Below, in pieces: positions 6,022 through 43,177 of a stretch of 45,935 nucleotides of DNA. The notes under the pieces are model-generated. The model had not been told where the DNA came from. It worked only from the letters and a program-made list of their open reading frames with translations, and did not search any database. The position numbers and the translations under genes are program-made. Positions within the stretch are counted from its first letter, which is position 1; the number at the start of each line of letters is the position of its first letter. The stretch is from Bacteroidota bacterium (GTDB lineage: Bacteria > Bacteroidota > Bacteroidia > Chitinophagales > Saprospiraceae). The DNA lies in assembly GCA_038746215.1 (NCBI GenBank), contig JBCDKV010000001.1, positions 1 to 45,935 of the forward strand, in the 5' to 3' direction.

Positions 6022-6340
6022 GTATAGTTTTATTTTAACGAGCGCAAGTTGCGACTACGAATGCGCTACGACAACCTTCAGTAGCAGACAATCGTGTAAA
6101 ATAAGCGATTGTCCGTTCATTGTCTTGTTTTCAAGCACCTATGTCCATTTGATCGGACGGTATTGGAATCATCTCTTTTTATTGTTTTTTGTTGAAATGG
6201 AGGTTATGAACAGGATAAGAGCGATTTGCCCGAACTCGAAAGCGCAAATCGGAAAACTTGGATCGGTAAGCCCTAAGGATTGCCGAGCTGACTATCTAGC
6301 TAACTCAGTGAAAAGTCGAAAACACATCAGTTCTTGATGT

Positions 6341-6619
6341 GAATAACGGGTAAAATACTCCATTTTGTGGCAGTAACAGCTTTACTAAACTTTTGAAACT
6401 TAGTAGAGCGTTCGAGATCGCGCAACAAGTATGCCCAAAGGTTTTTTATGGACGGAAACACAAATTTCAACTTATTTTTTGGAGAAAAATAAGTTGAAAT
6501 TTGTGTTTCCGTCCGAAGAGAATTACTGAGCATACTTGTTGCTCAATTTACGGATTTTGATCTGAACTATATCTGAGTTAAATGTCAAGAAAAATGATAC
6601 CTGTACAGTCGTTATTCGC
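6341..6619 (+). repeat. Palindromic MITE-like element, family A, copy 1
   Basis: Terminal inverted GAATAACG / CGTTATTC and internal inverted GCAACAAGTATGC / GCATACTTGTTGC. There is a perfect 30-bp central hairpin 6450-6479 / 6485-6514. It ends 28 nt before the ABC ATPase start. Confidence 0.85.
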
Positions 6620-6646
6620 ATTCTTGCTACTAAAATACAAACAAAA

Positions 6647-7525
6647 ATGACACTCCGCATTCAAAATTTAACAAAGATATATCCCAATGGCGTAAAAGCC
6701 TTAGATCACCTCGATTTAGAGATCGAGAAGGGTATGTTTGGCTTGCTTGGTCCGAATGGTGCGGGCAAATCGAGCTTGATGCGTACCATCGCCACCTTGC
6801 AACGACCCGACCAAGGCAGCATTGTTTTTGAAGGTATTGAGGTACTAAAAGACGCGATGAGTTTACGAAAAGTTTTGGGCTATCTGCCTCAAGCATTTGG
6901 TGTCTATCCCAAAGTATCTGCGCTGCGTTTGCTCGACTATTTTGCCACTTTGAAAGGTATTGCTTCCAAAAAAGAACGAACGATCATCATCCAAAAAGTA
7001 TTGGAATTGACCAATCTTTACGATGTCCGAAAGAAAAGTGTCAGCAGCTATTCGGGCGGTATGAAGCAGCGTTTTGGAATCGCGCAATTACTCCTCAACA
7101 ATCCTCGCCTCATCATCGTCGATGAACCCACTTCAGGACTCGATCCCGCCGAACGCAACCGCTTTTTGAATGTGCTGCGCGCCGTCGGAGCGGAGAACAC
7201 GGTCATTTTTTCGACCCACATTGTAGAAGACGTGAAAGAGCTTTGTACCGATATGGCGATCATGAACAAAGGACGTATTCTGCGACACATTCCTCCAAAG
7301 GCTGCCACCGCCAAACTAGCAGGTAAGGTGTGGAAAAAGCAAATTGATACTGCTACTTTGGAGGTTTACGAAGCTCAGATGACTGTCCTTTCTTCCCATT
7401 TCGCACCAGATAATTCCAAAGTCATTCGAGTCTTTGCGGAGACTCAACCCGATGCTAGTTTTGAGAGGGCGACCCCTAATTTAGAGGATGTTTATTTTTT
7501 GGCACTTGGTATTAATAACACATAA
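6647..7525 (+). CDS. ABC transporter ATP-binding protein (ABC-2/CcmA-like)
   Basis: Walker A GPNGAGKSS, signature YSGGMKQR, Walker B LIIVDEPTSGLD, H-loop STHIVED. Confidence 0.95.
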   Translation: MTLRIQNLTKIYPNGVKALDHLDLEIEKGMFGLLGPNGAGKSSLMRTIATLQRPDQGSIVFEGIEVLKDAMSLRKVLGYLPQAFGVYPKVSALRLLDYFATLKGIASKKERTIIIQKVLELTNLYDVRKKSVSSYSGGMKQRFGIAQLLLNNPRLIIVDEPTSGLDPAERNRFLNVLRAVGAENTVIFSTHIVEDVKELCTDMAIMNKGRILRHIPPKAATAKLAGKVWKKQIDTATLEVYEAQMTVLSSHFAPDNSKVIRVFAETQPDASFERATPNLEDVYFLALGINNT

Positions 7526-15818: not shown

Positions 15819-15826
15819 TATTTTTG
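15819..15826 (+). promoter_or_regulatory. Possible Bacteroidota -7 promoter element (TAnnTTTG) for the methyltransferase operon
   Basis: TATTTTTG lies 22 nt upstream of ATG 15848. This is a motif match only. Confidence 0.25.
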
Positions 15827-15847
15827 TGGTTAAACATTTTTGTTTAT

Positions 15848-16918
15848 ATGACAGAAAAAAGAGAATATTCAGTAAAAGTCATTGACTTGTTTTGTGGTAT
15901 TGGCGGACTGACACATGGTCTCCATAAAGAGGGTCTTAATGTCGTAGCTGGCTATGATATAGATGACTTATGCGAATATCCTTATGAAGCGAATAATGAA
16001 GCTAAGTTCTTTGCTAAGGATGTGGTAGAAATAAAAGGAGAAGAATTAAATGAACAATTTAGTGATTGTGACATAAAAGTACTCGTCGGATGCGCACCTT
16101 GTCAACCGTTTTCGACTTACTCTTTTAAATCCAAGGATAAGGCTAAATGGCGATTATTATATGAATATGGAAGGCTAATAGAAGAGACTCAGCCTGATAT
16201 TATCTCAATGGAAAATGTACCTCGTTTAGCAAAATTCACAAAAGAACCTGTTTTCCGAGATTTTTTAGATTTACTCAAAAAAAATGGCTACGAAAAACCA
16301 TTTTTTCGAATTGTCAATTGTGCTAATTATGGTGTTCCACAGAATCGTAAAAGACTTGTCCTTTTGGCATCTAAAAAAGGTGATATTACTTTAATCGACC
16401 CTACACATGAAGATGGTAATTACGAAACGGTGAAGAATGCTATTGGTAAACTTGAACCGTTGGAAAGTGGGGAAGAATCACAAAAAGATGTTTTGCATAA
16501 GGCAAGTCGGCTATCTGAACTCAATCTAAAGAGAATCAAACAATCAAAGCCTGGAGGTACTTGGAAAGATTGGGATGAAGAATTACGTTTGAAATGTCAC
16601 AAGAAAGCATCAGGTAATACTTACGTAAGTGTTTATGGACGCATGAGTTGGGATAAGCCCTCTCCAACAATTACTACACATTGTACAGGTATAGGTAATG
16701 GAAGATTTGGTCATCCTGAACAAGACAGAGCTATAACCCTTAGAGAAGCAGCCATTCTTCAGTCTTTTCCTAATAAATATAAGTTTGTTCCAAAAGGAGA
16801 AAGCTTTAATAAAAGGAGAATGTCCATTCACATAGGTAATTCTGTGCCTCCAAGATTGGGGCAAGCAATAGGAAGTAGTATAAAAAAGCACATTGAAGAA
16901 TATTACCCGAATTTTTAA
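15848..16918 (+). CDS. DNA (cytosine-5)-methyltransferase
   Basis: Canonical m5C motifs occur in order: I DLFCGIGG, IV GCAPCQPFS, VI SMENVPRL, VIII QNRKRLVLL, IX TLREAAILQSFP, X GNSVPP. The start MTEKREYSVKVIDLF was chosen over the track start 15824. Confidence 0.93.
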   Translation: MTEKREYSVKVIDLFCGIGGLTHGLHKEGLNVVAGYDIDDLCEYPYEANNEAKFFAKDVVEIKGEELNEQFSDCDIKVLVGCAPCQPFSTYSFKSKDKAKWRLLYEYGRLIEETQPDIISMENVPRLAKFTKEPVFRDFLDLLKKNGYEKPFFRIVNCANYGVPQNRKRLVLLASKKGDITLIDPTHEDGNYETVKNAIGKLEPLESGEESQKDVLHKASRLSELNLKRIKQSKPGGTWKDWDEELRLKCHKKASGNTYVSVYGRMSWDKPSPTITTHCTGIGNGRFGHPEQDRAITLREAAILQSFPNKYKFVPKGESFNKRRMSIHIGNSVPPRLGQAIGSSIKKHIEEYYPNF

Positions 16919-16921
16919 ACT

Positions 16922-17956
16922 ATGCCTACACAACAAGAAATACAAATAGCGGAAGCACAAATAGTTGAAGAAAAAGAGACTATCAGTTATGATACTAGAG
17001 AATACCCAGTTGAGGTAATAGTTGATAAATTCAATAATGATGAATTCACAATTCCCAAGTATCAACGTGAATTTGTTTGGCGAGAAGATAAACAATCCAA
17101 GTTTATAGAATCTATATTTTTAGATTTACCTGTTCCATTTTTATTTTTTGCTGATGAACCAGAAACAGGTAAACTAGAGATTGTTGATGGTTCTCAAAGA
17201 GTAAGAACTTTAGTTGAATTTCTAGGCGATCGACTCATTCTAAAGAATCTTGAAAGGCTAGATAAATCAAATGGATTAAAGTTTTCTGACTTTCCACTAC
17301 CTCGTCAAAGAAGATTTAAGAGAAAAACAATCCGTTCTATAGAATTAACAGAGAATGCCTCCATACAGGTTAAAAATGACTTATTTGGCAGGATAAATAC
17401 TGCTCCCTATGATTTAACTCCAATGGAAATCAGGAAGGGATTATTTGAAGGAGAATTTTATGATTTTATCAAAAATTGCTCTGAGGAAGAATTGTTCAAA
17501 GAACTTTGTCCTATAAGTGAGAAAAGAGAAAAAAGAGAAGAACGCCCTGAAATGGTCTTACGCTTTTTTGCTTACTCTGATAAGTATCAGTCTTTTGTAC
17601 ACAGAGTAGATGGGTTTATGGATAAATATATGGAAGACAAACATAAGGATGGATTTGATAGAGCAATTATGCAAGAAGAGTTTATGAGAATGTTGCGATT
17701 TGTAGAGCAACATTTTCCTAATGGGTTTAAAAAAGCTGCTACTCATAAATCGACTCCTAGAGTTCGCTTTGAGGCTATTTCGGTTGGAGTCAACTTGGCT
17801 CTACGCGAAAATGATGAATTGAATCCACCAAACATTCGAAATTGGCTCGAATCTGATGAGTTTAAGGAATTGATTACTTCTGATGGAGCTAATAGTAAAG
17901 CAAAGGTGATTGGAAGAATAGAATATGTAAGAGATAAACTCCTAGGAAATGATTGA
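16922..17956 (+). CDS. DUF262 (ParB/Srx-like NTPase domain of the GmrSD/SspE/BrxU class) protein lacking a DUF1524 nuclease domain
   Basis: N-terminal IPKYQREFVW and IVDGSQR(VRTL) match the DUF262 (I/L)PxFQRxxVW and DGQQR signatures. The product is 344 aa with no HNH/His-Me-like C-domain visible. It starts 3 nt after the methyltransferase stop. Confidence 0.8.
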   Translation: MPTQQEIQIAEAQIVEEKETISYDTREYPVEVIVDKFNNDEFTIPKYQREFVWREDKQSKFIESIFLDLPVPFLFFADEPETGKLEIVDGSQRVRTLVEFLGDRLILKNLERLDKSNGLKFSDFPLPRQRRFKRKTIRSIELTENASIQVKNDLFGRINTAPYDLTPMEIRKGLFEGEFYDFIKNCSEEELFKELCPISEKREKREERPEMVLRFFAYSDKYQSFVHRVDGFMDKYMEDKHKDGFDRAIMQEEFMRMLRFVEQHFPNGFKKAATHKSTPRVRFEAISVGVNLALRENDELNPPNIRNWLESDEFKELITSDGANSKAKVIGRIEYVRDKLLGND

Positions 17957-18644
17957 TGTAAAAAGAGACTTTGAAGAACGCGTAGAAGAGATAGAACTGT
18001 ATTTTGAGTTTATTGAAAATTTAGTTGAGAAAGATGCTAAACTGATATACCCTGATAAATCTGAAAAAGAGTTTGACGATGACTTGGTTAAAATATTCAA
18101 GGCCAATTCATTTCTTTTGCTATATAACCTATGCGAGTCTTGTATTCCTAATGCAGTTGAGGCAATTTATCTTAAAGTAAATACCGATGGAGTAAACTTT
18201 GATAAATTGCGCAGTGAATTTAAGATAGAAATTATAAAATTCTTAAAGTCAGCTAATAGTGCCAAGCCTAAAGATTTTGTTGGGAGGATAAACAATATAG
18301 CACAAGGAATAATCCTTGAGTGTTTTAAAAAGGAAAAATTATTCCCAGGAAATATTGATGCAGATAAGATAAGCGAATTAGCAAGGAAATATGGATTTTC
18401 TTCTTCTTGCACATTTGTTATTAATAGTGATGGAAGCCGCTCCAATATAAAACGGTCGAATCTTCGTACTGTTAGGAGAAAAAGAAACGAATTAGCGCAT
18501 GGAACTTACTCATTCAAGGAATGTGGAAAAGATTATACCATCCCCGATTTAATTGAGATTAAAAATCATGTTGTAGAGTATTTGCGCCAAATATTGAACA
18601 ATATAGAACAATACATCATCAACCAAGAGTACTTAGTTTCATAA
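17949..18644 (+). CDS. HEPN-domain protein (resembles the MAE_28990/MAE_18760-type HEPN nucleases that accompany DUF262 genes)
   Basis: All-helical 231-aa protein with an Rx4H motif in RRKRNELAHG (R-N-E-L-A-H, polar residue after R) near the C-terminal third. Its ATG overlaps the DUF262 stop by 8 nt (ATGATTGA). Confidence 0.65.
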   Translation: MIDVKRDFEERVEEIELYFEFIENLVEKDAKLIYPDKSEKEFDDDLVKIFKANSFLLLYNLCESCIPNAVEAIYLKVNTDGVNFDKLRSEFKIEIIKFLKSANSAKPKDFVGRINNIAQGIILECFKKEKLFPGNIDADKISELARKYGFSSSCTFVINSDGSRSNIKRSNLRTVRRKRNELAHGTYSFKECGKDYTIPDLIEIKNHVVEYLRQILNNIEQYIINQEYLVS

Positions 18645-18752
18645 TAAAAATAGTCATAATATTTTTCTTGTTAATTGATTTTCTCTTGCAACCATAGAGC
18701 GAGGCTAGAACAGAAAAACTATCACTGCTAAGCAAAAAACAGCAACTAAAAT

Positions 18753-19040
18753 ATGAACTCGTCCAACATACTTAATCTATCCAAGCTGCCTACAAATGTC
18801 AGGCAACAACTAATAGATTATTACCAATATTTAGTAGAAAAATATACTATTGCTGAACAAGCACAAAACCAAGATACGACCTTTTTGCAGCAATTTGTAA
18901 AACCTATGCGTAAGCACACTGATATTAATGCTCTAGTCAAAGAGCAAAACTACTCGGGAGTAGATAAAGCCAAAGTTCAAAATATTGTAAAGGCCATAAA
19001 CATTCCACAAAGTACGGACGAACTACTAATGATGCTATGA
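18753..19040 (+). CDS. Putative antitoxin with DUF2281-like N-terminus
   Basis: KLPTNVRQQLIDYYQYLVEKY resembles the DUF2281 'LPxxxQxxvxDFxxFL' helix. Its stop overlaps the PIN gene start by 4 nt. Confidence 0.5.
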   Translation: MNSSNILNLSKLPTNVRQQLIDYYQYLVEKYTIAEQAQNQDTTFLQQFVKPMRKHTDINALVKEQNYSGVDKAKVQNIVKAINIPQSTDELLMML

Positions 19041-19480
19041 GATACCTTTTAGATATAGATATTCTATTGCTGTACTTGCGGGAAGACTCAACAGCTAAAG
19101 AGATCGAAGATCAATACCACATCTTAGAAAAAGAACATCTTGCTTTGATTTTGATAGTAAGCAAAGGTGAATTAAAAGCTTTGGCATTAAAAAATAAGTG
19201 GGGAAATCGTCGTATTGCTAAATTGGAAGAGTTTCTAAATCAATTTTTTATCATTGATATTAATGCCGAAGATATTATTGATCGATATGCCGAAATTGAT
19301 GCTTACAGTCAAGGTAAGTTAGATCGTTTGGCAAGTAATTTCACGGCAAGAAATATGGGTAAAAATGATATGTGGATTGCTGCAACAGCTTCTATAACAG
19401 AAGCTTCGTTGATTACAACAGATAAAGATTTCCACCATCTTCACAAAACCTTCATTGACTTAATCTATGTGAAGCGATAG
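19037..19480 (+). CDS. vapC: PIN-domain ribonuclease toxin (VapC-like)
   Basis: Acidic PIN residues sit in the expected positions: LLDIDIL near the N-terminus, NDMWIAATA, and LITTDKDF near the C-terminus. It is translationally coupled to the upstream small ORF. Confidence 0.75.
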   Translation: MRYLLDIDILLLYLREDSTAKEIEDQYHILEKEHLALILIVSKGELKALALKNKWGNRRIAKLEEFLNQFFIIDINAEDIIDRYAEIDAYSQGKLDRLASNFTARNMGKNDMWIAATASITEASLITTDKDFHHLHKTFIDLIYVKR

Positions 19481-19502
19481 CTTGACACAGCATATATCAC
19501 CT

Positions 19503-20951
19503 ATGAGACGCTCAATTCTACAACTACTCTCCAAACATACCTTCCAAAACCTTCTTAAAAGCAATAGCACCAAATGGCTCATCGGACTATTCAATGTCCT
19601 GCTACTCTTTGCCTTGCTAGCTGCCTATTCGAGTAGCTTAGAACAGGCGCATACCCTCGACCACTACAGCCAGGAGGTGCGAGAACGCTGGGAAAGTAAT
19701 CCTGATAAGCATCCGCATCGCATGGCGCACTATGGCTACGTGGCGTTTCGGCAAAAATATCCGTTGAGCTTCTTTGATTATGGGATGGATAGTTATTTGG
19801 GCAATGCCGTTTTCTTAGAAGCACATCGCCAGAATACCATCAACTTTTCGGAAGCCAGTCTTTCCAGTAGTCTATTGCGCTTCGGGGAAATTTCTGCTGC
19901 CTTGATTTTACAGTTGCTCGTACCCTTGCTGTTGTTTTTCTGGGGATTTTCACTGATCGCAAAAGAACGAGAACAGGGAACGCTACAGCTATTATTAGCG
20001 CAAGGAACGAGTTGGTCGGAGTTGATTATTGGTAAGACTTTGGGCTTATTCTACCTATCACTGATGCTTTTGCTGCCCAGTGTGGTAGTGGCTTTGGGCT
20101 TGCTCTTTTTCCATCCTTTATTCACGGAAACGCCCGATGTGGTGTTGAGTTTTGGGACGCTTGCGATGGGCTATCTGATCTATTTATTCATCATGTCTTT
20201 ATTGGCGGTTTGGATTTCTGCTACTTGCCAAACTTCTAAAACGGCTTTGATTCAATTGATTGGTTGTTGGCTATTTTTTACTTTGATGTTGCCTAAATTG
20301 GCGCAGGTGACGGGACAAGTTTTCTATCCTTCACCTTCCAAAATTGAGTTTGACACCGCCGTGGAAGAGGAACTCATCGAACAAGGTGATAGCCACGATC
20401 CAAACGATCCACATTTCAAGGGACTGAAAGATTCGCTACTTGCGGTTTATCAGGTCAGTTCCACCGATGAATTGCCGTTCAATTTTAGTGGTTACGTCAT
20501 GCGAGAAGGCGAACGGATGAGTACCGAAACGTTCCGTCGTCATCAGCTTCAATTGATGGAACGCTACCAGCAGCAACAAAATTTAATCCGTTGGACGGCT
20601 TTGATTAATCCTTACATCGCCATCAAAAATTTATCTATGGCAATGTCGGGGACGGACTTCCTTGCCTATCGAAATTTCCAAGATCAGACGGAGGCATACC
20701 GCTACGATTTGGCGCAAACCATGAATGAATTGCAGATCAAATACGTCAGCAATAACACCAGTAGTTCGGCGGATAAAAAATCGAGAATTAGCCAGCAACA
20801 TTGGAAGGATTTTCCAGATTTCCAATACCAATTTCTATCTTTCAAAAGCATCTTTCAGCACGAAATCCTATCGCTATTTTCTTTGCTGCTTTGGCTGGCT
20901 GGACTACTTTGCTTAGCTAATTTTTCTACCCAAAACTTAAAAGCCTTTTAA
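19503..20951 (+). CDS. DUF3526-family ABC-2-like membrane permease
   Basis: Multi-TM protein with the KEREQGTLQLLLAQG motif typical of ABC-2/DUF3526 permeases. The ATG at 19503 (MRRSILQLL) is preferred to the TTG at 19482. It is followed 1 nt later by a paralogue. Confidence 0.7.
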   Translation: MRRSILQLLSKHTFQNLLKSNSTKWLIGLFNVLLLFALLAAYSSSLEQAHTLDHYSQEVRERWESNPDKHPHRMAHYGYVAFRQKYPLSFFDYGMDSYLGNAVFLEAHRQNTINFSEASLSSSLLRFGEISAALILQLLVPLLLFFWGFSLIAKEREQGTLQLLLAQGTSWSELIIGKTLGLFYLSLMLLLPSVVVALGLLFFHPLFTETPDVVLSFGTLAMGYLIYLFIMSLLAVWISATCQTSKTALIQLIGCWLFFTLMLPKLAQVTGQVFYPSPSKIEFDTAVEEELIEQGDSHDPNDPHFKGLKDSLLAVYQVSSTDELPFNFSGYVMREGERMSTETFRRHQLQLMERYQQQQNLIRWTALINPYIAIKNLSMAMSGTDFLAYRNFQDQTEAYRYDLAQTMNELQIKYVSNNTSSSADKKSRISQQHWKDFPDFQYQFLSFKSIFQHEILSLFSLLLWLAGLLCLANFSTQNLKAF

Positions 20952-20952
20952 C

Positions 20953-22302
20953 ATGACGCAATTATTAATCACCAATTTTCTGCGCTCCAAAGGCTTGATG
21001 ATTGGTCTTTTGCTGATTTTTCTTACTGGTTTAGTGAGCTTACACATTGGCAAAGTTTTCCTAGCCCAACAAGCGGATATTGCTGTCAAAACAGCGCATT
21101 ATCAAACAGAACACCATCGCCAACACCTGACCTACGAACACGGAGAAATGGGCTTACTGCTCTACTACATCCGATTTGGCTTAGCGAATGAAATACCCAA
21201 CATTGCGGGACTTTCCATTGGGCATCGAGATATTCATCCCAACGTCCAACTGGTCAATATTCGGAATCTGGAAGAGCAGAAACACGCTACGGAACTCAGG
21301 AATCCGCTCTATCAATTGTTGGGCAATTTGGATTTTAGTTTTGTATTGATCTACCTTTTTCCACTCATCATTATTGCCTTTTGCTTCAATCTACTATCAG
21401 AAGAAAAAGAAGGCGGTACGTGGACATTAGTGCTCAGCCAAGCCCCTCAGCCACTGACCATTATCAGTACCAAATTATGGATTCGCCTAGCTAGCATCTT
21501 AGCCGTTCTATTCAGCTTGCTAGCCATTGGAAAGGTGTATCTCGCGATTCCACTTGATACCGCTTTCTTTGCTTTCACCTTGGTCGCTGTGCTATATGTC
21601 TTATTTTGGTTTGCACTAGCTTGGTTTGTGGTGAGTTTACAAAAATCATCCAGTCAAAATGCGCTCTCCCTACTCTTAGCTTGGGTATTGTTGACCATCA
21701 TTCTGCCCGCCTCCATCAATGCTTTAGTTATCAATCTGTATCCTGTTCCCGAAGCGTATAGCACCGTCATAGAAAGCAGAGACGGCTACCACAACAAATG
21801 GGATTTACCCAAAGCACCGACCATTCAAAAATTCAAGGAACACTATCTACAATTTGCACAATATGAACATCCGGCAGGGCAAAGTTTCGGTTGGTTTTGG
21901 TACTACGCCATGCAGCAAATGGGAGACGACGAAGCGGCAGCATCCAACAAAGCGATGAAAGAAAAACTGCAAAAAAGAGATCAAATCAGCCGGACTATTG
22001 CCTATTTTTTCCCCAGTCTGCACACCCAATTTTCTCTCAATGCGCTGAGCCAATCTGATATGCGCAACTACCTACATTTTATAGAGCAATTGGAAGCCTT
22101 CCACGAAGACAAACGCTTATATTTTTATCCTAAAATTTTTGAAGAAACGCCCATCGAGGAGGAGAATTGGGCGCAATTTACTTTAGAGTATGCCGAGAGG
22201 GATCGGAAGGTGGAATGGTTCAAGCAGCTTCTGCCCTTGGGTTTGGTGAGTTTGTTGTTGGTGTTTTTGGCGCGGGGGAGATGGTCGACGATGAGAATGT
22301 AG
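20953..22302 (+). CDS. DUF3526-family ABC-2-like membrane permease (second paralogue)
   Basis: MTQLLITNFLRSKGLMIGLLLIFLTGLVSLHIGK, GLLLYYIRFGLANEIPNIAGLSIGHRD and SEEKEGGTWTLVLSQ match my recollection of DUF3526 proteins. Confidence 0.75.
   Translation: MTQLLITNFLRSKGLMIGLLLIFLTGLVSLHIGKVFLAQQADIAVKTAHYQTEHHRQHLTYEHGEMGLLLYYIRFGLANEIPNIAGLSIGHRDIHPNVQLVNIRNLEEQKHATELRNPLYQLLGNLDFSFVLIYLFPLIIIAFCFNLLSEEKEGGTWTLVLSQAPQPLTIISTKLWIRLASILAVLFSLLAIGKVYLAIPLDTAFFAFTLVAVLYVLFWFALAWFVVSLQKSSSQNALSLLLAWVLLTIILPASINALVINLYPVPEAYSTVIESRDGYHNKWDLPKAPTIQKFKEHYLQFAQYEHPAGQSFGWFWYYAMQQMGDDEAAASNKAMKEKLQKRDQISRTIAYFFPSLHTQFSLNALSQSDMRNYLHFIEQLEAFHEDKRLYFYPKIFEETPIEEENWAQFTLEYAERDRKVEWFKQLLPLGLVSLLLVFLARGRWSTMRM
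22202..22284 (+). repeat. Direct repeat, left copy (functional 3' end of the DUF3526 gene)
   Basis: Aligns with 26059-26140 with about 6 substitutions and one 1-nt indel (ATCGGAAGGTGGA.TGGTTCAA.CAGCTT.TGCCCTTGGGTT...GGCGCGGGGGAGATGG). Confidence 0.85.
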
Positions 22303-22333
22303 TAAGTATTTGATTTACCAGCTTTCTCCAAAT

Positions 22334-23395
22334 TTACCTACTTAATTCATAGACTTTGTACCAATAGAAAAAAGCTTCTGGATTTGATTTTTTGAGTTTG
22401 TTCAGGCGAGTGTAGAAGGGTTGTTCAATTATCCAATCTTTTATTCGCATGGGATTATCATACCTTCCAAAAGTTACTTTTCCTTGTTCGATCAATTTAG
22501 ATAGATAAGCTGCTTTAGCGGCATCAGCAATGGCTCGTTCAATATGATAGCTTTCTGAAAAAATGAAGGCTTTAACTTGAGAAATACCTTGTTGTAAGGC
22601 TTGAAAATTCGCAGTTCCTTCTTTTCCACGAGTTGAAATAGTCAGCGCAGTTTGGAATATGTCATCTAGGACAAATTTGTAATCTTGTTCTATTGCTCTG
22701 TAATGTAACTCTGTTTCAGTAAATTTTTTGAAAGTAGTTGTTGTGATCTCTAAATTGGTAATTTGATCGAAGATTGTACCAATATCAAACAGTTGTTTGA
22801 TGATTTCCATTGCACTACTTTGCCCCCTTTTCAGATAAGGAATGCCTGTTGTTTCAGGAGCAAATGCAGTGAGTTTATCTCCCAGTATATCTTCAAAGGA
22901 AGGTACAAGAACAGCTAATGTACGCCCTTCCTGCAATACAAAATTTGAGTCAATAGCAATTGATTTAAGCTGTTGATATTGTACTTTCTCAAATAAGATG
23001 TCCAATAAAATATTATCTTCTGATCTACCACTGTGATAAGTAGGAGCGTAGTAAAATTTGTAGTGTGCTTTTTCTAGTTTTGATTTTACCTTTCGTTCAT
23101 GTAGTTCTACTCTCGTGAATCCTTTTGAGGTAGCTAATGCTTCTAATTTAGGAGCTAATTGGACGTTTAAAGTCTGGATAATAATATCAACATCAATGGA
23201 TAGCCTTTTGGTAGAATCAAACATTAGCATCAAAGAAGTACCCCCTTTAAAAACAAAGTCTATGTTCATTTCCACTAAACCTTCTAGCAATAGTAACGCC
23301 CTGATTACTTTCTCTACCAGCGCAGGATCAGCTTTTTTATTTTTTGCAGCAATCGTCCTAATCCAAGCTGCCTTTAAAGACTTTTCACTTATCAT
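22334..23395 (-). CDS. abiEii: Nucleotidyltransferase AbiEii/AbiGii-family toxin (DUF1814)
   Basis: N-terminal FVFKGGTSLMLMF...RLSIDVDII matches the AbiEii FKGGTAL / S.DIDL nucleotidyltransferase core. It lies directly downstream of an AbiEi-like gene. Confidence 0.8.
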   Translation of the reverse strand: MISEKSLKAAWIRTIAAKNKKADPALVEKVIRALLLLEGLVEMNIDFVFKGGTSLMLMFDSTKRLSIDVDIIIQTLNVQLAPKLEALATSKGFTRVELHERKVKSKLEKAHYKFYYAPTYHSGRSEDNILLDILFEKVQYQQLKSIAIDSNFVLQEGRTLAVLVPSFEDILGDKLTAFAPETTGIPYLKRGQSSAMEIIKQLFDIGTIFDQITNLEITTTTFKKFTETELHYRAIEQDYKFVLDDIFQTALTISTRGKEGTANFQALQQGISQVKAFIFSESYHIERAIADAAKAAYLSKLIEQGKVTFGRYDNPMRIKDWIIEQPFYTRLNKLKKSNPEAFFYWYKVYELSR

Positions 23396-23413
23396 TATGG
23401 CATTTTTTTGAAT

Positions 23414-24124
23414 TTAGTGCCGATTTATAGCACTAAGTATTTCCTGAATTTTAGCTTTTTTCTTGCGCCTAGAAGCGTATCGAAATAGAGTACTCCGATT
23501 GACGGTGTACTTTTCAAGTGCTCGTTGAAAAATATTGATTAATTCGTAGCCCTGATAGAAATAAAATAAAGCTTTGTAAGAAACTAGGTCAACCAGTAGT
23601 TTTTCTATGCTAGTGCTAGGCAAATCTTTGATAAGTTGTGTAGGAGCTTCTGACACCAAATTTTGGATAATAATAGGGTTCGCTATGTCCAGAAGATAAT
23701 TTTCTACTGCATCTTTGGTGGGTTTTAGGTAAACATGCTTATGATTTGCTTTGAGATGTTGAAATACTGCCTCTAAACTATCTCTATCGGTCTCCACAAT
23801 AATAAAATGATTCTGAGCTTGATGAATGGATAGTTCTTGAATAATATTGGAGTTCCAGATACAGTAGTCAAGAAATGGAAAACCTTGCTTTAATTCTTTA
23901 CTGATCTTTAACTCTTTCCTTTTCGGCAGTGGTTTAAATGTTTTTGGAGCGCCCACTATGAACCTCCCTCTCCCGATTCTACTAATTTTTCCTGATTGCA
24001 CAAGTTGGTATATTCTCCAATTGACAGTACTCTTGGAAATCTCTTTTTCTTTTTCAGCATAGAAGTTGTAGATTTCTTTATTGGTAAAGAAATTGTGATC
24101 TTTAAAACGATGAGCTATGCTCAC
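23414..24124 (-). CDS. abiEi: AbiEi-like antitoxin/transcriptional regulator (winged HTH, DUF6577-like)
   Basis: The N-terminal wHTH STVNWRIYQLVQSGKISRIGRGRFIVG is typical of AbiEi-family antitoxins. It lies 18 nt upstream of AbiEii on the same strand. Confidence 0.7.
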   Translation of the reverse strand: MSIAHRFKDHNFFTNKEIYNFYAEKEKEISKSTVNWRIYQLVQSGKISRIGRGRFIVGAPKTFKPLPKRKELKISKELKQGFPFLDYCIWNSNIIQELSIHQAQNHFIIVETDRDSLEAVFQHLKANHKHVYLKPTKDAVENYLLDIANPIIIQNLVSEAPTQLIKDLPSTSIEKLLVDLVSYKALFYFYQGYELINIFQRALEKYTVNRSTLFRYASRRKKKAKIQEILSAINRH

Positions 24125-24490
24125 TATTTGTAGTTTATTTCCGATATGAGGATTGTTTTATTGAAAATCAAATTTATGGCAATAAAACAGATTAATTGCC
24201 GAAATGTTGAGGCGTGTATATCTTGTAAATTATTTTAAAAGATTAAGCGATTTGGTAAGTTGCTTATTCCAAATAATTATGAAAGTTGTGAGTTTTTAGG
24301 ACTTCACAGGTGAGAAAAATAGTCCATGCTCGCATACTACCCCACAATAAAACGAAACGTTAACTGCAACATTTTTTATTGTATGTTCATCAAAGTGAAA
24401 GGATGCCTGTCCGCCTTTTATACTAGGAGCGGCATACTTTGTGCGCGAACAGGAGTGGATGGTCGTTGGTGTAATGAAGTCATAGCTTGA

Positions 24491-25135
24491 TTATTTACCA
24501 ATCAAGGTGAATTCAGATAATTTCAGCTCAAAATCTGGCAGAACATCTTCTCCTGAAAGTATTCCATCAAAATTCTTAATGACATCTACACTTTCATCTT
24601 CGCGATAGATGTAGGCTCTTTCTTTATAGGGATCAATCAACCAAGCCAAACGGACGCCATTGGTGATCCATTTATTTTGCATTTTCTTTTTTAGTTTTTT
24701 GAGTGAATCTGAAGCGGAGCGCAATTCCACCACAAAATCTGGAACAGCAGGCAAAAACCTTTTTTCGATGTCCTCTGGTGTTAAATTAGATAATCTTTCT
24801 GCACTGATCCAAGAAGCATCTGGACTTCTTGTAGAACCATCGGGCAGATCATACCCTATTTGAGAACTCCCCACTTGTCCTTGTCCATAGGCTTCACACC
24901 AATTTCCTACTCTACGAATAAGCAAACCTTCTCTAAAACCACTTCCACCAAATACTGGAGACATAATTGTTATTTTTCCTTTTTCATCGCGTTCCATCAG
25001 CAATTCTGGGTAAGTACCACAAAGGCTGATAAAAGCTGCTTTATCCAAACCTTTTACCACTAAGGTTCCACCCAATTGCTCAATTAATTGAATCATACCA
25101 ATATCTTGAACACCTTTCTCTAATACTGCTGTCAT
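24491..25135 (-). CDS. Uma2-family (DUF820, PD-(D/E)xK-like) endonuclease
   Basis: Contains ...SPDASWI... and PDFVVELRSASD, the conserved Uma2 D...(D/E)xK-like block. Confidence 0.75.
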   Translation of the reverse strand: MTAVLEKGVQDIGMIQLIEQLGGTLVVKGLDKAAFISLCGTYPELLMERDEKGKITIMSPVFGGSGFREGLLIRRVGNWCEAYGQGQVGSSQIGYDLPDGSTRSPDASWISAERLSNLTPEDIEKRFLPAVPDFVVELRSASDSLKKLKKKMQNKWITNGVRLAWLIDPYKERAYIYREDESVDVIKNFDGILSGEDVLPDFELKLSEFTLIGK

Positions 25136-26058: not shown

Positions 26059-26140
26059 ATCGGAAGGTGGAGTGGTTCAAACAGCTTTTGCCCTTGGGTT
26101 TCGTGAGTTTATTGTTGATGTTTTGGCGCGGGGGAGATGG
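26059..26140 (+). repeat. Direct repeat, right copy (decayed, frame-shifted DUF3526 3' end)
   Basis: See 22202-22284. This copy has no upstream DUF3526 coding sequence and carries a 1-nt deletion relative to the functional copy. Confidence 0.85.
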
Positions 26141-26432: not shown

Positions 26433-26645
26433 AATTAGCTTAGGTTTGAATTTGAATAAGTGAAAATTAATTTGGAAAAAAGTAATTGCATTACAATTTT
26501 AAGAGCAACAAATTTAGTGGAGTTTTAGTTGCTTTTTGGTAGCCATTTACCTGCTCACTTTGGCTTTGCTGCTCTAACATTCTTTGCAAAAGTCTCATTC
26601 CCTTTCTTAGAAACTTTATTTCCCTGACTAGGATATTGTTGATAA

Positions 26646-26927
26646 TGCGAATAACGGGTAAAATACTCCATTTTGTGGCAGTGATAGTTTTACTAAACTT
26701 TTAAGACTTAGTAAAGCGTTTGAGATCGCGCAACAAGTATGCCCAAAGGTTTTTTATGGACGGAAACACAAATTTTAACTTATTTTTCAGAGAAAAATAA
26801 GTTAAAATTTGTGTTTCCGTCCGAAGAGAATTATGGAGCATACTTGTTGCTCAATTTGCGGATATTGACCTGAACCATATCTGAGTCAAATGTCAAGAAA
26901 AATAAGATATATATAGCCGTTATTCAC
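26646..26927 (+). repeat. Palindromic MITE-like element, family A, copy 2
   Basis: Collinear with 6341-6619. The perfect central hairpin is 26758-26787 / 26793-26822. Confidence 0.85.
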
Positions 26928-26973
26928 ATTAATAACGGGCAACTTTAAGATTACCCGTCATTTTACACAATCA

Positions 26974-36649: not shown

Positions 36650-36953
36650 TTTAGGTTTTATTTTCCGTGTGTAAATTGCAATGTCTTTAACCTTGATTCG
36701 ATTTTCCTCGTCTAAGCAGGTAAAATATTCGACTAATCCAAATCATTAAGAATCAATGCAAATATGGGGTAGAATAATACGAAAAGAGTAGCACAAATCT
36801 TACAAATGTTAGCACATTTATGACTTAGGGCGGTAATATCCCAAATTTTAGGGATGGATTTTTAAAAGGCCTTTGGACAACAAGATGAAAAATGAAATTT
36901 TTTATCTTGTTGTCCAGGAAGAATGTCAAGTGAGCAAATAAACTTGTCACAAT

Positions 36954-37235
36954 GCGAATAACGACTGTACAAATATCATTTTGCTTGACATTTGACTCAG
37001 ATATAGTTCAGGTCAATATCCGCAAATTGAGCAACAAGTATGCTTACTAATTCTCTTCGGACGGAAACACAAATTTAAACTTATTTTTTTGGAGAAAAAT
37101 AAGTTTAAATTTGTGTTTCCGTCCATAAAAAACCTTTTGGCATACTTGTTGCGCGATCTCAAATACTTTACTAAGTTTCAAAATTTTAGTAGAGCTACTA
37201 CTACCACAAAATGGAGTATTTTACCCGTTATTCGC
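36954..37235 (-). repeat. Palindromic MITE-like element, family A, copy 3 (inverted orientation)
   Basis: Reverse-oriented relative to copies 1 and 2. The perfect central hairpin is 37059-37088 / 37095-37124. It ends 20 nt from the XisI gene stop. Confidence 0.85.
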
Positions 37236-37254
37236 ATTATTATTAGATTTTTTG

Positions 37255-38134: not shown

Positions 38135-38222
38135 TCAGATAAACATGTCAAAAAATAAATGAACACTTATATTTCCATCCATTAAAAAACTTTGGACATG
38201 CTTGTTGACCGATCTAAAAGGC
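38135..38222 (-). repeat. Degenerate half-copy of family A element
   Basis: TTTCCATCCATTAAAAAACTTTGGACATGCTTGTTGACCGATCT parallels TTTCCGTCCATAAAAAACCTTTTGGCATACTTGTTGCGCGATCT of copy 3. Confidence 0.55.
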
Positions 38223-38312
38223 TTGATCAGGAGCTATATCAAGCACTGCTAATCAAAATTTTCCTTACTTTTGAAGCCAGCCTATTAAGAATAGATAGCA
38301 AAAACACAACAC

Positions 38313-38900
38313 ATGTCAAAAATTGCAGGTGTCGACTATGGTTCAAAACTCGCGGGGACGAGTGTGATCTCTTATTTGCAAGGAGAAGAAGTTTGCTTTT
38401 TACAAAGTGCTAAAAAGCAAGATGCTGATGCTTTCCTACTGAATAATATTCGAGTCTTAGGTTTGGATACCATATTTTTGGATGCACCGCTTTCCCTGCC
38501 CGGCGTCTACAGAAATATTGATCCCTACAATGACTTTTTTTACCGGGCTGTAGATCGTTTACTACAAGCCATGTCGCCTATGTTTTTGGGTGGACTGACT
38601 GCACGTGCTATGCGACTGAAACAGCAGTTGGGAGCACAAGAAGTCACGGTCATAGAAACTTATCCTGCTTATTTAGCACGACGCTTTAAGCTCGCTGATT
38701 TCCGCTATAAAAAGCAGCTCGTTCACCTGCCCGCTTGCAGTGAATATCTCATCGAGCAATTGGCACTTCCCTATCGCATCGCGACGATCAACAATTGGCA
38801 TCAAATGGATGCGCTGCTGGCTTTTTACAGTGCTTGGCGATACAGCAAGCAAACACATGAATCTTTTGGTGATGCGGAAGAAGGGCAGGTGATGGTGTAG
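38313..38900 (+). CDS. DUF429-like predicted RNase H-fold nuclease
   Basis: AGVDYGSKLAGTS at the N-terminus, LDAPLSLPG, ETYPA and HQMDALLA follow the DUF429 pattern (GIDg..., iDaPigLp, hPe, D..DAl.A). Confidence 0.5.
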   Translation: MSKIAGVDYGSKLAGTSVISYLQGEEVCFLQSAKKQDADAFLLNNIRVLGLDTIFLDAPLSLPGVYRNIDPYNDFFYRAVDRLLQAMSPMFLGGLTARAMRLKQQLGAQEVTVIETYPAYLARRFKLADFRYKKQLVHLPACSEYLIEQLALPYRIATINNWHQMDALLAFYSAWRYSKQTHESFGDAEEGQVMV

Positions 38901-38943: not shown

Positions 38944-39183
38944 AGCAGGTTTTCAAGTTAGATTACTGGATATCAGGGTGAAACAAACCACTAAGGCTCA
39001 TAGCTTTAAAGTTCAAGCGCAAGTGTCAAGTACAAGTTCAAATGCATGCGACCTGCAAAATCCATTCTATCTTGTTGAATACGTGTCCCAGAAACGAGAC
39101 TGAAATGCTTGTAGGGTCGGTACACTTTGTACCTGCACCTCAAAAATATCCAGTAGTGTACGCTGAAGTAGATATCAGAAATT

Positions 39184-39480
39184 CGCGCAACAAGTATACT
39201 CAGTAAGTCTATTCGGACAGAAATGAAAATTAGGCGTGTACGAAGTTTTTAGCAATGCTCAAAATAAGCCTTGATCAATCCCTTGAGATCGCGCAACAAG
39301 TATGCCTAAAGGTTTTTTATGGACGGAAGCACAAAATTTCACTATATTTTCTCTAAAAAATAGTGAAATTTTGTGCTTCCGTCCGAAGAGATTTACCAAG
39401 CATACTTGTTGCGCGATTTTCTAGTATTGACTCAGGCTCTTTTTGAGTAAAATGTTAAGCAAAATAGGACTTCGTACACC
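39184..39480 (+). repeat. Family A element, copy 4 (divergent variant with different outer arms and an extra half-core)
   Basis: The core GATCGCGCAACAAGTATGCC..GGACGGAAGCACAAAATTTCACTAT / ATAGTGAAATTTTGTGCTTCCGTCC..GCATACTTGTTGCGCGAT is conserved in architecture. The outer inverted repeat is GTGTACGAAGT (39236-39246) / ACTTCGTACAC (39469-39479). Confidence 0.75.
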
Positions 39481-39609
39481 CTTAAATAAAAATTAGCAAT
39501 TTGGGACTAAAGTGTCGACTACTTTTTATTCCAAAGCAATCATATCTATTTCAACAAATTTGCTGATGCACTTGATGTCATCCTCCAATTCAAACAACAT
39601 CTATATCAT

Positions 39610-40395: not shown

Positions 40396-40613
40396 GAGCA
40401 ATACTTGTTGCGCGATTTTTTTGCATTGACTCAGGCTGTTTTCAAAAGATAGTGTCAAGCAAGCGAATAAACTTGTCAAAATAATTAAGCATTTGTGTTT
40501 CCGTCCATAAAAATCTTGGGCATACTTGTTAGGCAGTCTCAGGCACTCTACTGAATTTCAAAATTTCAGCGAAGCTTTGCTACATAGAATGGCGCATTTT
40601 AACCCTTATTCGT
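40396..40613 (-). repeat. Family A element, copy 5 (partial, lacks one arm of the central hairpin)
   Basis: GAGCAATACTTGTTGCGCGAT...ATTTGTGTTTCCGTCCATAAAAATCTTGGGCATACTTGTT...CCCTTATTCG is collinear with copy 3 but has an internal deletion. Confidence 0.65.
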
Positions 40614-42758: not shown

Positions 42759-42792
42759 GCAGGATTAGGACAATTGATTAATCTTGCGTCTA

Positions 42793-42953
42793 TTAAGAGC
42801 TTGTTTGGAATTTTTACAAACTGATAATCAGTAGTTTGCGATTCTGGCAAGTTGAAAAATTAGTTGCATATCTGGATACGGAACTCTTTTTTCACGCAGT
42901 CAAGTTCGTAAAATGTTGGTTATCAGGCAGGAAAAATCCAAATAAGCTCTTAA
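42793..42953 (-). repeat. Palindromic MITE-like element, family B, copy 2 (inverted relative to copy 1)
   Basis: The reverse complement aligns with 311-473. Termini TTAAGAGCTTGTTTGGA / TCCAAATAAGCTCTTAA. Confidence 0.75.
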
Positions 42954-43040
42954 CCTTTAGTCCATAATATCTACCCTGAGTACTACTTACTTGCTCGAAG
43001 ATCATAAGCTAAGTAGTAAGTACTCAATACGTCTAACTTT

Positions 43041-43177
43041 TTGTCAGAATCAGGATTCACAGGATGAGCGGATTCACGGGATTTCCCCAAACAAGACGCA
43101 TAGTATCTCATTTGGAAGGCTACGTGCTTAGTAATCCTGGAAATCAATAAATTCTGAAAATCCTGATTTCTGACAGA
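43041..43177. repeat. Small palindromic element, family C (single copy in window)
   Basis: Terminal inverted repeat TGTCAGAATCAGGATT (43042-43057) / AATCCTGATTTCTGACA (about 43159-43175). Internal direct repeat GGATTCACAGGAT..GGATTCACGGGAT. Confidence 0.55.

Follow-up and report, generated by a model that had tools for sequence, protein, structure and literature searches.

A dispersed palindromic element of uncultured Bacteroidota whose hairpin arms are probably kept matched by copying one arm onto the other

Introduction

Several miniature inverted-repeat transposable elements (MITEs) of bacteria carry long internal palindromes, such as Correia/CREE of Neisseria, ERIC/IRU and RUP. Here we describe a repeat family with a comparable palindrome in positions 1 to 45,935 of contig JBCDKV010000001.1, from the assembly GCA_038746215.1 of a Bacteroidota bacterium. 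We refer to this whole stretch of 46 kb as the window. At the centre of the element is a hairpin with a stem of 30 bp, which remains paired while its sequence differs between copies. The two arms seem to be kept alike largely by a process acting on the DNA itself, i.e. the copying of one arm onto the other.

Processes of this kind have been described. In quasipalindrome correction, or template-switch mutation, as in the Ripley model and in the work of Lovett (PMC8794818, PMC5453318), a single event copies one arm onto the other. Template switching across a hairpin inverts loops and gives multibase compensatory changes (PMC8794818). Lovett 2017, van Noort 2003 and Ripley 1982 are all in the reference list of PMC5941160. 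Hence, the process is already known. It is the element family that is new, and it shows the process unusually clearly.

Results

Hairpins and the element around them

We compared about 15 hairpins, taken from the window and from four related Bacteroidota metagenome-assembled genomes (MAGs). The window copies 1-4 are labelled w1-w4, and loci outside the window have L-numbers. Direct re-reading of the four window hairpins returned the coordinates and sequences given in a preliminary description of this DNA:

6450-6514, w1: left arm GGACGGAAACACAAATTTCAACTTATTTTT, loop TGGAG, then the exact reverse complement of the arm; 30/30 pairs
26758-26822, w2: as w1, except for T:A at the variable position; a closing C:G adds to the 30 pairs; loop CAGAG
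37059-37124, w3: stem of w1 but with A:T at the variable position; 30/30 pairs
39321-39384, w4: GGACGGAAGCACAAAATTTCACTATATTTT; 29/30 pairs, with an A.A mismatch four pairs from the loop; loop CTCT

The stems of w1, w2 and w3 are perfect over 30-31 bp and differ at a single position (C:G, T:A and A:T); their loops differ too. This bears out the earlier observation of C, T and A variants at one position, each mirrored in the right arm. The description of copy 4 as having a different stem with one mismatch near the loop was also accurate. Its distal stem differs from that of w1-w3, and it shows a mirrored A-to-G change at stem position 9. When the 133-nt cores around the hairpins are folded as single-stranded DNA, they reach -43.9 to -52.5 kcal/mol, against about -11 for shuffled sequences (z = -12 to -15, with 0/200 shuffles folding as well).

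The hairpin is the middle of a conserved core of ~125 bp, which lies within an element of 256-285 bp. From the outside inward, the core has an outer inverted repeat of 13-19 bp, a spacer of 15 nt on each side, the inner stem of 30 bp and a loop of 4-6 nt. In w1, these parts are placed as follows:

6422-6434, + strand: left arm of the outer inverted repeat, GCAACAAGTATGC
6435-6449, + strand: spacer 1, CCAAAGGTTTTTTAT, conserved and non-complementary to spacer 2
6450-6514, no strand assigned: central hairpin, with a perfect 30-bp stem and the loop TGGAG
6515-6529, + strand: spacer 2, GAAGAGAATTACTGA
6530-6542, + strand: right arm of the outer inverted repeat, GCATACTTGTTGC

The outer repeat (GCAACAAGTATGC / GCATACTTGTTGC) reaches 18-19 bp in some copies. 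The spacers, CCAAAGGTTTTTTAT on one side and GAAGAGAATTACTGA on the other, are both conserved, and since they are not complementary to each other the element has an orientation. The first 15 bp of the stem (GGACGGAAACACAAA) are nearly invariant across copies, while the distal 15 bp are variable. Outside the core are wings of 60-85 bp. Subfamily A1 (copies 1-3) has elements of 285 bp that end in the inverted repeat ATG[C/T]GAATAACG, and subfamily A2 (copy 4) has elements of 256 bp that end in TTAGGCGTGTACGAAGT. Both have the same core, but their termini are different and their wings, taken together with the core edge, are about 30-46% different. Between subfamilies there is one difference in spacer 1, one in the stem base and three to four in spacer 2. 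The open reading frames (ORFs) within the elements are short (up to 73 aa) and read across the repeat. If G.U pairs are allowed, as in RNA, the two spacers could pair at 9-12 of 15 positions on the w1 strand and at 6-8 of 15 on the opposite strand (6435-6449 with 6515-6529, and equivalents). This asymmetry is a single inherited feature without covariation and a weak hint of which strand is transcribed.

Both arms of the stem change together

The fifteen hairpins represent seven stem haplotypes, all of which are palindromic. We measured covariation on the nine distinct hairpin sequences. In these, 98.8% of the cells are paired and 8 of 29 stem positions are changed on both sides (16 cells), with 2 G.U wobble cells and 3 unpaired cells. 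None of 500 shuffles reaches any of these measures, and in a control where partners were slid by 1-3 columns only 33-56% of the cells are paired. The excess of compensatory changes is thus beyond chance. It had been envisaged that the copies might be mere recent duplicates of palindromic variants. This is contradicted by seven distinct haplotypes, all palindromic and set in wings that are 8-50% different. Transversions (U:A/A:U, C:G/G:C, C:G/A:U, A:U/C:G) make up the majority of the double changes, and several haplotypes differ by apparent mirrored one-base shifts. Mismatches in a single arm are each limited to one copy.

Unpaired changes are fewer than the wings would lead one to expect. Copy-specific substitutions affect 3.1% of wing positions in A1 and 9.3% in A2. 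At these rates, 7.6 unpaired stem positions are expected in four A1 hairpins, where 2 are seen (Poisson P ~0.02), and 22.4 in four A2 hairpins, where again 2 are seen (Poisson P ~5e-8). Paired change is fast. Between A2 copies, 21-43% of the distal stem positions differ, which equals or exceeds the divergence of the wings. Stem haplotype H1 is identical in w1, an A1 element, and in L088 and L093, which are A2 elements whose wings differ from it by 27-46%. The right wing is identical in w2 and L003a (0 differences over 101 nt), and these two copies differ in left wing, stem and loop orientation. This pattern suggests an exchange between copies centred on the core.

Loop orientation and arm-to-arm copying

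We compared the loops after orienting all copies by their asymmetric spacers. In w1 the loop is TGGAG, whereas w3, L088, L090 and L093 have CTCCA or CTCCAA. Similarly, w2, L003b and L094 have CAGAG or TAGAG, whereas the loop is CTCTA in L003a and CTCT in w4. The copies w4 and L092b have the same unusual stem, and their loops are CTCT and AGAG, respectively. Both orientations are therefore present on several stem backgrounds, including inside the window (w1 versus w3).

Together with the deficit of unpaired changes, the fast paired change and the transversions and shift-like changes among the double changes, the presence of the loop in both orientations points to a process at the DNA level. Selection on structure cannot invert a loop, and loop inversion consequently favours arm copying over selection alone. 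Another cause of inversion could be gene conversion between copies aligned antiparallel through their palindromic arms. Transposition of perfect 'master' copies does not by itself explain the deficit of unpaired changes, because copy-specific changes postdate insertion. Unpaired changes must instead be corrected or purged in place. If compensatory evolution had to pass through deleterious intermediates, it should be slower than neutral evolution, and hence the fast distal stem fits copying. Overall, we think it probable that the hairpin is the centre of a MITE and that its arms are matched mainly by arm copying at the DNA level, i.e. by quasipalindrome correction. The preliminary description had left two alternatives, selection on a DNA or RNA hairpin and a mechanism by which one arm is copied from the other. 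The latter is now the better supported. Of the former, a terminator can be set aside, a structured RNA has no match among bacterial RNA families, a Y1/RAYT enzyme is disfavoured, and selection is tenable in part.

In the mechanism that we propose, a change in one arm would be erased or copied to the other arm by intramolecular template switching, which we would place in replication or break repair. Such correction events would now and then invert the loop. Ectopic gene conversion between copies, aligned through their palindromic arms, may contribute. The distal 15 bp would vary freely provided that changes are mirrored. The near-invariance of the stem base GGACGGAAACACAAA, the spacers and the outer repeat would reflect sequence-specific constraint or homogenisation between copies, and these parts plausibly make up a predicted site for a dimeric protein. 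Copies with a broken palindrome would be lost by deletions ending at the hairpin.

In four derivatives the hairpin is gone, and the endpoints of the deletions are the hairpin apex, the hairpin base or the outer repeat. Two of the four keep perfect 7-bp target duplications. The derivatives are:

L093, 1272-1420: deletion between two TGC triplets
L092, 828-974: deletion derivative
L019, 2836-3117: deletion derivative with a collapsed stem
Window, 40478-40613, - strand: A1-type half copy with one arm from the apex outward, spacer 1, the outer inverted repeat, the wing and the terminus ACGAATAAGGG; the other half is deleted and the deletion endpoint is the hairpin apex

Transposon character

Both subfamilies have inverted repeats at their ends. 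A1 has ATG[C/T]GAATAACG at both ends, and the GAATAACG termini previously reported are hence genuine for copies 1-3. A2 has 17-bp terminal inverted repeats TTAGGCGTGTACGAAGT with 1-4 mismatches. We found 7-bp flanking duplications in four of the eight two-ended A2 elements (7/7, 7/7, 6/7 and 6/7), and a fifth has a 6/7 duplication if one boundary is shifted by one base. When left and right flanks of different elements were paired as a control, the mean agreement was 2.9/7 and only 1 of 56 pairings reached at least 6/7. Terminal inverted repeats and a fixed 7-bp target duplication are marks of DDE-type transposition, and not of IS200/IS605 or RAYT. To judge from these sequence marks, the element is a MITE and not of the IS200/RAYT type. 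It would insert by means of a cut-and-paste or copy-and-paste transposase encoded elsewhere, a step that these marks show in part. Insertion would leave the terminal inverted repeats and, in A2, the 7-bp target duplications. The cognate insertion sequence (IS) would carry ATGCGAATAACGGG or TTAGGCGTGTACGAAGT termini.

Our scans of the window ORFs found no transposase, integrase, tyrosine recombinase or Y1 enzyme, and the earlier statement that the window has no candidate transposase holds for every ORF scanned. Likewise, no Y1_Tnp or RAYT was found in the window or in ~70 kb of flanks of the other copies. There is a DDE_Tnp_1 gene at L091, but it is part of an IS inserted into a copy, and the end of this IS is unrelated to the termini of the element. 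At this locus (L091 147-1582), the hairpin is cut in its right arm between GTGTTTC and AATACTG, and the DDE_Tnp_1 gene comes next. The palindrome seems to have been the target of an unrelated IS.

Alternative explanations

Several points weigh against an explanation by arm copying within a MITE. The sample consists of ~15 hairpins from 4-5 genomes, which are mostly short-read MAGs where repeats are hard to assemble. The correction and flip events are deduced by comparing copies and not from direct observation of single events. Unpaired changes would also be depleted if pairing were selected for at each locus. The invariant stem base and spacers point to some sequence-specific constraint, to which selection may contribute, and a core that ends sharply and is conserved in both subfamilies fits a functional module, in which case selection would be a co-cause at the least. 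Target duplications are clear in A2 only, those of A1 being 5/5 (TCTTG), 4/5 and none. No cognate transposase turned up in the sequence scanned. Finally, a perfect palindrome of ~200 bp at L095 (5963-6207) has spacer 2, the outer repeat and the right wing on both sides, and ends exactly at the contig end. Either one arm was genuinely copied past the stem here, or the assembly folded back on itself. Because of the latter possibility, we did not use it as evidence.

Classical compensatory evolution would explain the matched arms by function. The hairpin would act as RNA (a small RNA, an RNase III element or a stability element) or as a single-stranded DNA structure, and selection would purge unpaired variants and fix second-site changes. 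Strong covariation is what this predicts, and it would account for a stem base, spacers and outer repeat that are far more conserved than the wings. Furthermore, the G.U pairing of the spacers on the w1 strand would give a near-continuous RNA helix of ~60 bp, although this spacer asymmetry is a single inherited observation. However, compensatory evolution cannot invert loops, and both orientations exist. It also fits poorly with the double changes, among which transversions and shift-like changes prevail and G.U intermediates are nearly absent, and with the 21-43% divergence of the A2 distal stem, which is unexpected if intermediates are deleterious. There is no terminator T-run and no Rfam family, the only matches being sub-threshold, microRNA-like and on both strands. 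On balance we regard this explanation as unlikely. The hypothesis that the elements are nothing special, i.e. recent duplicates of palindromic variants, chance or assembly artefacts, draws on the small sample and on the origin of the extra copies, mostly MAGs. It can also point to the recurrence of H1 in six hairpins (w1, L088, L090, L093, L095 and, with one mismatch, L091) and to L003a and L094, which carry H1 with one or two mismatches. Yet seven palindromic haplotypes are spread across elements with wings 8-50% different, and the covariation, folding and unpaired-deficit statistics all contradict it. Moreover, the C/T/A variants and the contrast between TGGAG and CTCCAA lie inside the window itself. 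We give this hypothesis very little credence.

Other explanations involve enzymes acting on the hairpin. It might be recognised by an HUH/Y1 enzyme (RAYT or IS200/IS605-type) and moved as single-stranded DNA, in the manner of REPINs. Conserved inverted units around a copy-variable, hairpin-forming spacer would fit, as would the symmetric central excisions reported for REPINs (PMC3337134), and the stem end CCGTCC includes the CGTC tag of one REP superfamily (PMC3733652). But the stems of CGTC REPs measure 8-9 bp (PMC3733652) and those of the element 30 bp, and its conserved units, GGACGGAAACACAAA and GCAACAAGTATGC, are not short palindromes themselves. Both the terminal inverted repeats and the 7-bp target duplications of the element are foreign to IS200/IS605 and REPINs, and no Y1 transposase turned up in the window or next to the other copies. 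This makes a REPIN-like origin very unlikely. Alternatively, the palindrome could be rebuilt at each transposition through a fold-back or hairpin DNA intermediate, so that insertions start perfect and loop orientation is random. The roughly 1:2 ratio of loop orientations and the perfect stems agree with this, as does the palindrome of L095 if it is not an assembly artefact. Against it, rebuilding does not predict a deficit of unpaired changes relative to wing substitutions that occurred after insertion. The spacers are asymmetric in every copy but L095, whose palindrome reaches the contig end exactly, as a de Bruijn fold-back artefact would, and copies without a core still have perfect target duplications. 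We thus find rebuilding at each transposition highly improbable. More broadly, the core might be the working site of a structure-specific enzyme (HUH/Y1-like, or hairpin- or cruciform-binding), or the element might copy itself through a fold-back intermediate. We hold this to be quite unlikely. If it were true, each round would regenerate a perfect palindrome and randomise the loop, and the family would be REPIN-like or 'rolling-hairpin' mobile DNA in Bacteroidota inside ordinary MITE termini.

Some candidate identities were tried and rejected. An intrinsic terminator should have a T-run 3' of the stem, and there is none on either strand (GAAGAGAA on one, ATAAAAAACC on the other). The T-run precedes the stem, and a terminator scan finds no terminator at any copy. 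A known RNA family is not supported, as Rfam gave 0 matches at the gathering score, and in E-value mode only eukaryotic microRNA-precursor models, on both strands and far below threshold. The variable distal stem is not part of a guide/target pair, since it matches its own flanks no better than the flanks of other copies. An 11-mer seen in L002 is within noise. We treated a link to CRISPR as a coincidence, given the lack of array or direct repeats at L002 and the unrelated neighbours of the other copies. The same applies to GGACGGAAAC, which we take to resemble the 3' end of some Cas6-type repeats. At L002 (4737-6692), an A2 copy lies 6 bp past the stop codon of cas1, in a cas operon including Cas6b. 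No CRISPR array was found in the 1.3 kb downstream of this copy.

Copies in the window and in other genomes

The window contains four full and four partial copies, and all the full copies are intergenic. Besides the half copy at 40478-40613 given above, they are:

6337-6621, + strand: w1, full A1 element of 285 bp, from ATGTGAATAACG to CGTTATTCGCAT, with a possible 5-bp target duplication TCTTG
26645-26929, + strand: w2, full A1 element, with outer inverted repeats at 26730-26742 and 26838-26850
36952-37237, - strand: w3, full A1 element in reverse orientation; in the w1 orientation its loop is CTCCAA, inverted relative to w1
38149-38260, - strand: degenerate half copy upstream of the ORF at 38313, comprising one hairpin arm, spacer 1, the outer inverted repeat and a wing of A2 type
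39167-39229, - strand: degenerate truncated copy with the outer inverted repeat, a spacer-2-type spacer and then GGACAGAAA; it stops where w4 starts
39230-39485, + strand: w4, A2 element of 256 bp, with terminal inverted repeats TTAGGCGTGTACGAAGT and TTAAGGGTGTACGAAGT and a flanking 7-bp duplication, ATGAAAA at 39223-39229 and ATAAAAA at 39486-39492
40399-40442, + strand: A2 right-wing fragment with the outer inverted repeat and wing, 90% identical to 39402-39443

Two sites in the window share a 46-nt stretch (36908-36953 and 40437-40482, 76% identity) with a small hairpin (TGTCAAGT ... ACTTGTCA). One site is just outside the left end of w3, and the other abuts the truncated arm of the half copy at 40478-40613. 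The shared stretch is suggestive of an ancient duplication of the segment, or of a sequence context that is preferred for insertion.

Outside the window, pattern scans of a genome collection retrieved the element only in three 'Bacteroidota bacterium' MAGs among the matches listed, and nearly all the matches listed for a 15-nt pattern are due to chance. A protein search with a 68-aa ORF that runs across the element gave three matches, all hypothetical proteins in related MAGs. It led to a fourth MAG, and two of the matches gave new copies, at contig ends. Related copies are often terminal on their MAG contigs. In SRR22824304, a Logan contig has 955 bp identical to the window and breaks at the repeats. 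This 955-bp contig is also the only one where the DUF6503 protein of the window had a match. The element was not found in the JGI metagenome collection (two patterns) or in a viral contig collection (one scan), and blastn searches against plasmid and phage records revealed no similarity. As far as these data go, this is an undescribed MITE family confined to a small clade of uncultured Bacteroidota. The gene content of the window is Bacteroidota-like, with sorting domains of the type IX secretion system, TonB-dependent receptors, XisI and Uma2.

Other repeats and loci in the window

We noticed other repeats in the window. A second family, unrelated to the MITE, forms four consecutive hairpins at 500-830. 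It includes a perfect stem of ~27 bp at about 729-785 (TCAAGGTTTTTAAGGACAAAGAAGCGA, then gaa, then the reverse complement), within a palindrome at 726-790. Its homologue in L088 (2350-2640) lacks exactly the central 38 bp, which leaves a hairpin of 8 bp. This difference is either a symmetric central deletion or an extension of the palindrome. Central excisions of a similar, symmetric kind are known from REPINs (PMC3337134). A third dispersed repeat is found at 315-477 and 42791-42921, in mutually inverted copies that are 83% complementary. It is shared with MAG P01_H01_bin.12 (L002 7251-7521), where 7251-7413 is 96% identical to 315-477 and 80% identical to 42791-42921, and 7412-7521 is 94% identical to window positions 43022-43131.

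The region 15824-25135 resembles a defence island. It encodes a C5 DNA methylase, GmrSD_N, HEPN (MAE_28990 type), PIN, an AbiEii nucleotidyltransferase, DUF6577 and a Uma2 endonuclease, and its GC content falls to 35-37%. A direct repeat of 66 nt with 91% identity is found at 22202-22267 and 26059-26124, over a distance of 3.9 kb. An ABC-2 permease gene has one of the two copies at its 3' end, and the second copy is intergenic.

Discussion

Compensatory changes in a stem are usually taken as proof of selection on structure. This family offers a clean natural counter-example, as the mirrored changes, the loop inversions and the paucity of one-arm changes point to a mutational cause. Covariation tests such as R-scape can mislead when applied to repeats and palindromes. 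The family may number hundreds of long perfect palindromes per genome, and could then report on template switching and palindrome processing as they occur naturally in an uncultured lineage of Bacteroidota. Annotation gains a new MITE family, at whose copies the MAG assemblies of this clade break.

Comparison with known systems

The element has much in common with the Correia/CREE, ERIC/IRU and RUP elements. It is ~260-290 bp long, well within the limit of about 600 bp for MITEs, non-coding, intergenic and multicopy, with terminal inverted repeats and target-site duplications. As in those MITEs, the whole element is an imperfect palindrome that would form a long hairpin if transcribed. In contrast to them, its centre is more conserved than its termini, and two subfamilies with unrelated termini share one core. 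Its central 30-bp stem is perfect, with the loop in both orientations, and it has no sequence similarity in the plasmid and phage collections or in Rfam.

The likeness to integron attC sites lies in an imperfect palindrome of ~125 bp with an unpaired central region, conserved inner boxes and a variable but paired terminal stem. The outer boxes GCGCAAC ... GTTGCGC are suggestive, agreeing with RYYYAAC/GTTRRRY at 6/7 positions on each side (the right side of A1 is GTTGCTC), and at 36.9-40.6 kb single small ORFs alternate with several of the copies. In attC sites, however, the inner stem has extrahelical bases, which the element lacks, and the unpaired spacer is short, whereas the element has an internal loop of 15x15 nt. 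Its copies occur in both orientations, with distances of up to 20 kb between them, and its wings have their own inverted-repeat termini and target duplications. We rejected an attC identity, as there are no bulges, no co-oriented array and no integron integrase in the window.

REPINs also have conserved inverted units that flank a copy-variable spacer always able to form a hairpin, and symmetric central excisions (PMC3337134). They differ from the element, which has terminal inverted repeats, 7-bp target duplications and a perfect 30-bp stem, and which has no short palindromic units with a GTAG tag and no RAYT gene in the sequence available.

The closest parallel to the behaviour of the stem is quasipalindrome correction. 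Multi-base 'compensatory' changes, extension of pairing, loop inversion and a deficit of one-arm changes are all seen in the element. This process is usually documented in reporter genes, in the histories of ribosomal RNA or microRNA, or at single loci. Here, it is inferred across a dispersed natural family with unusually long perfect arms.

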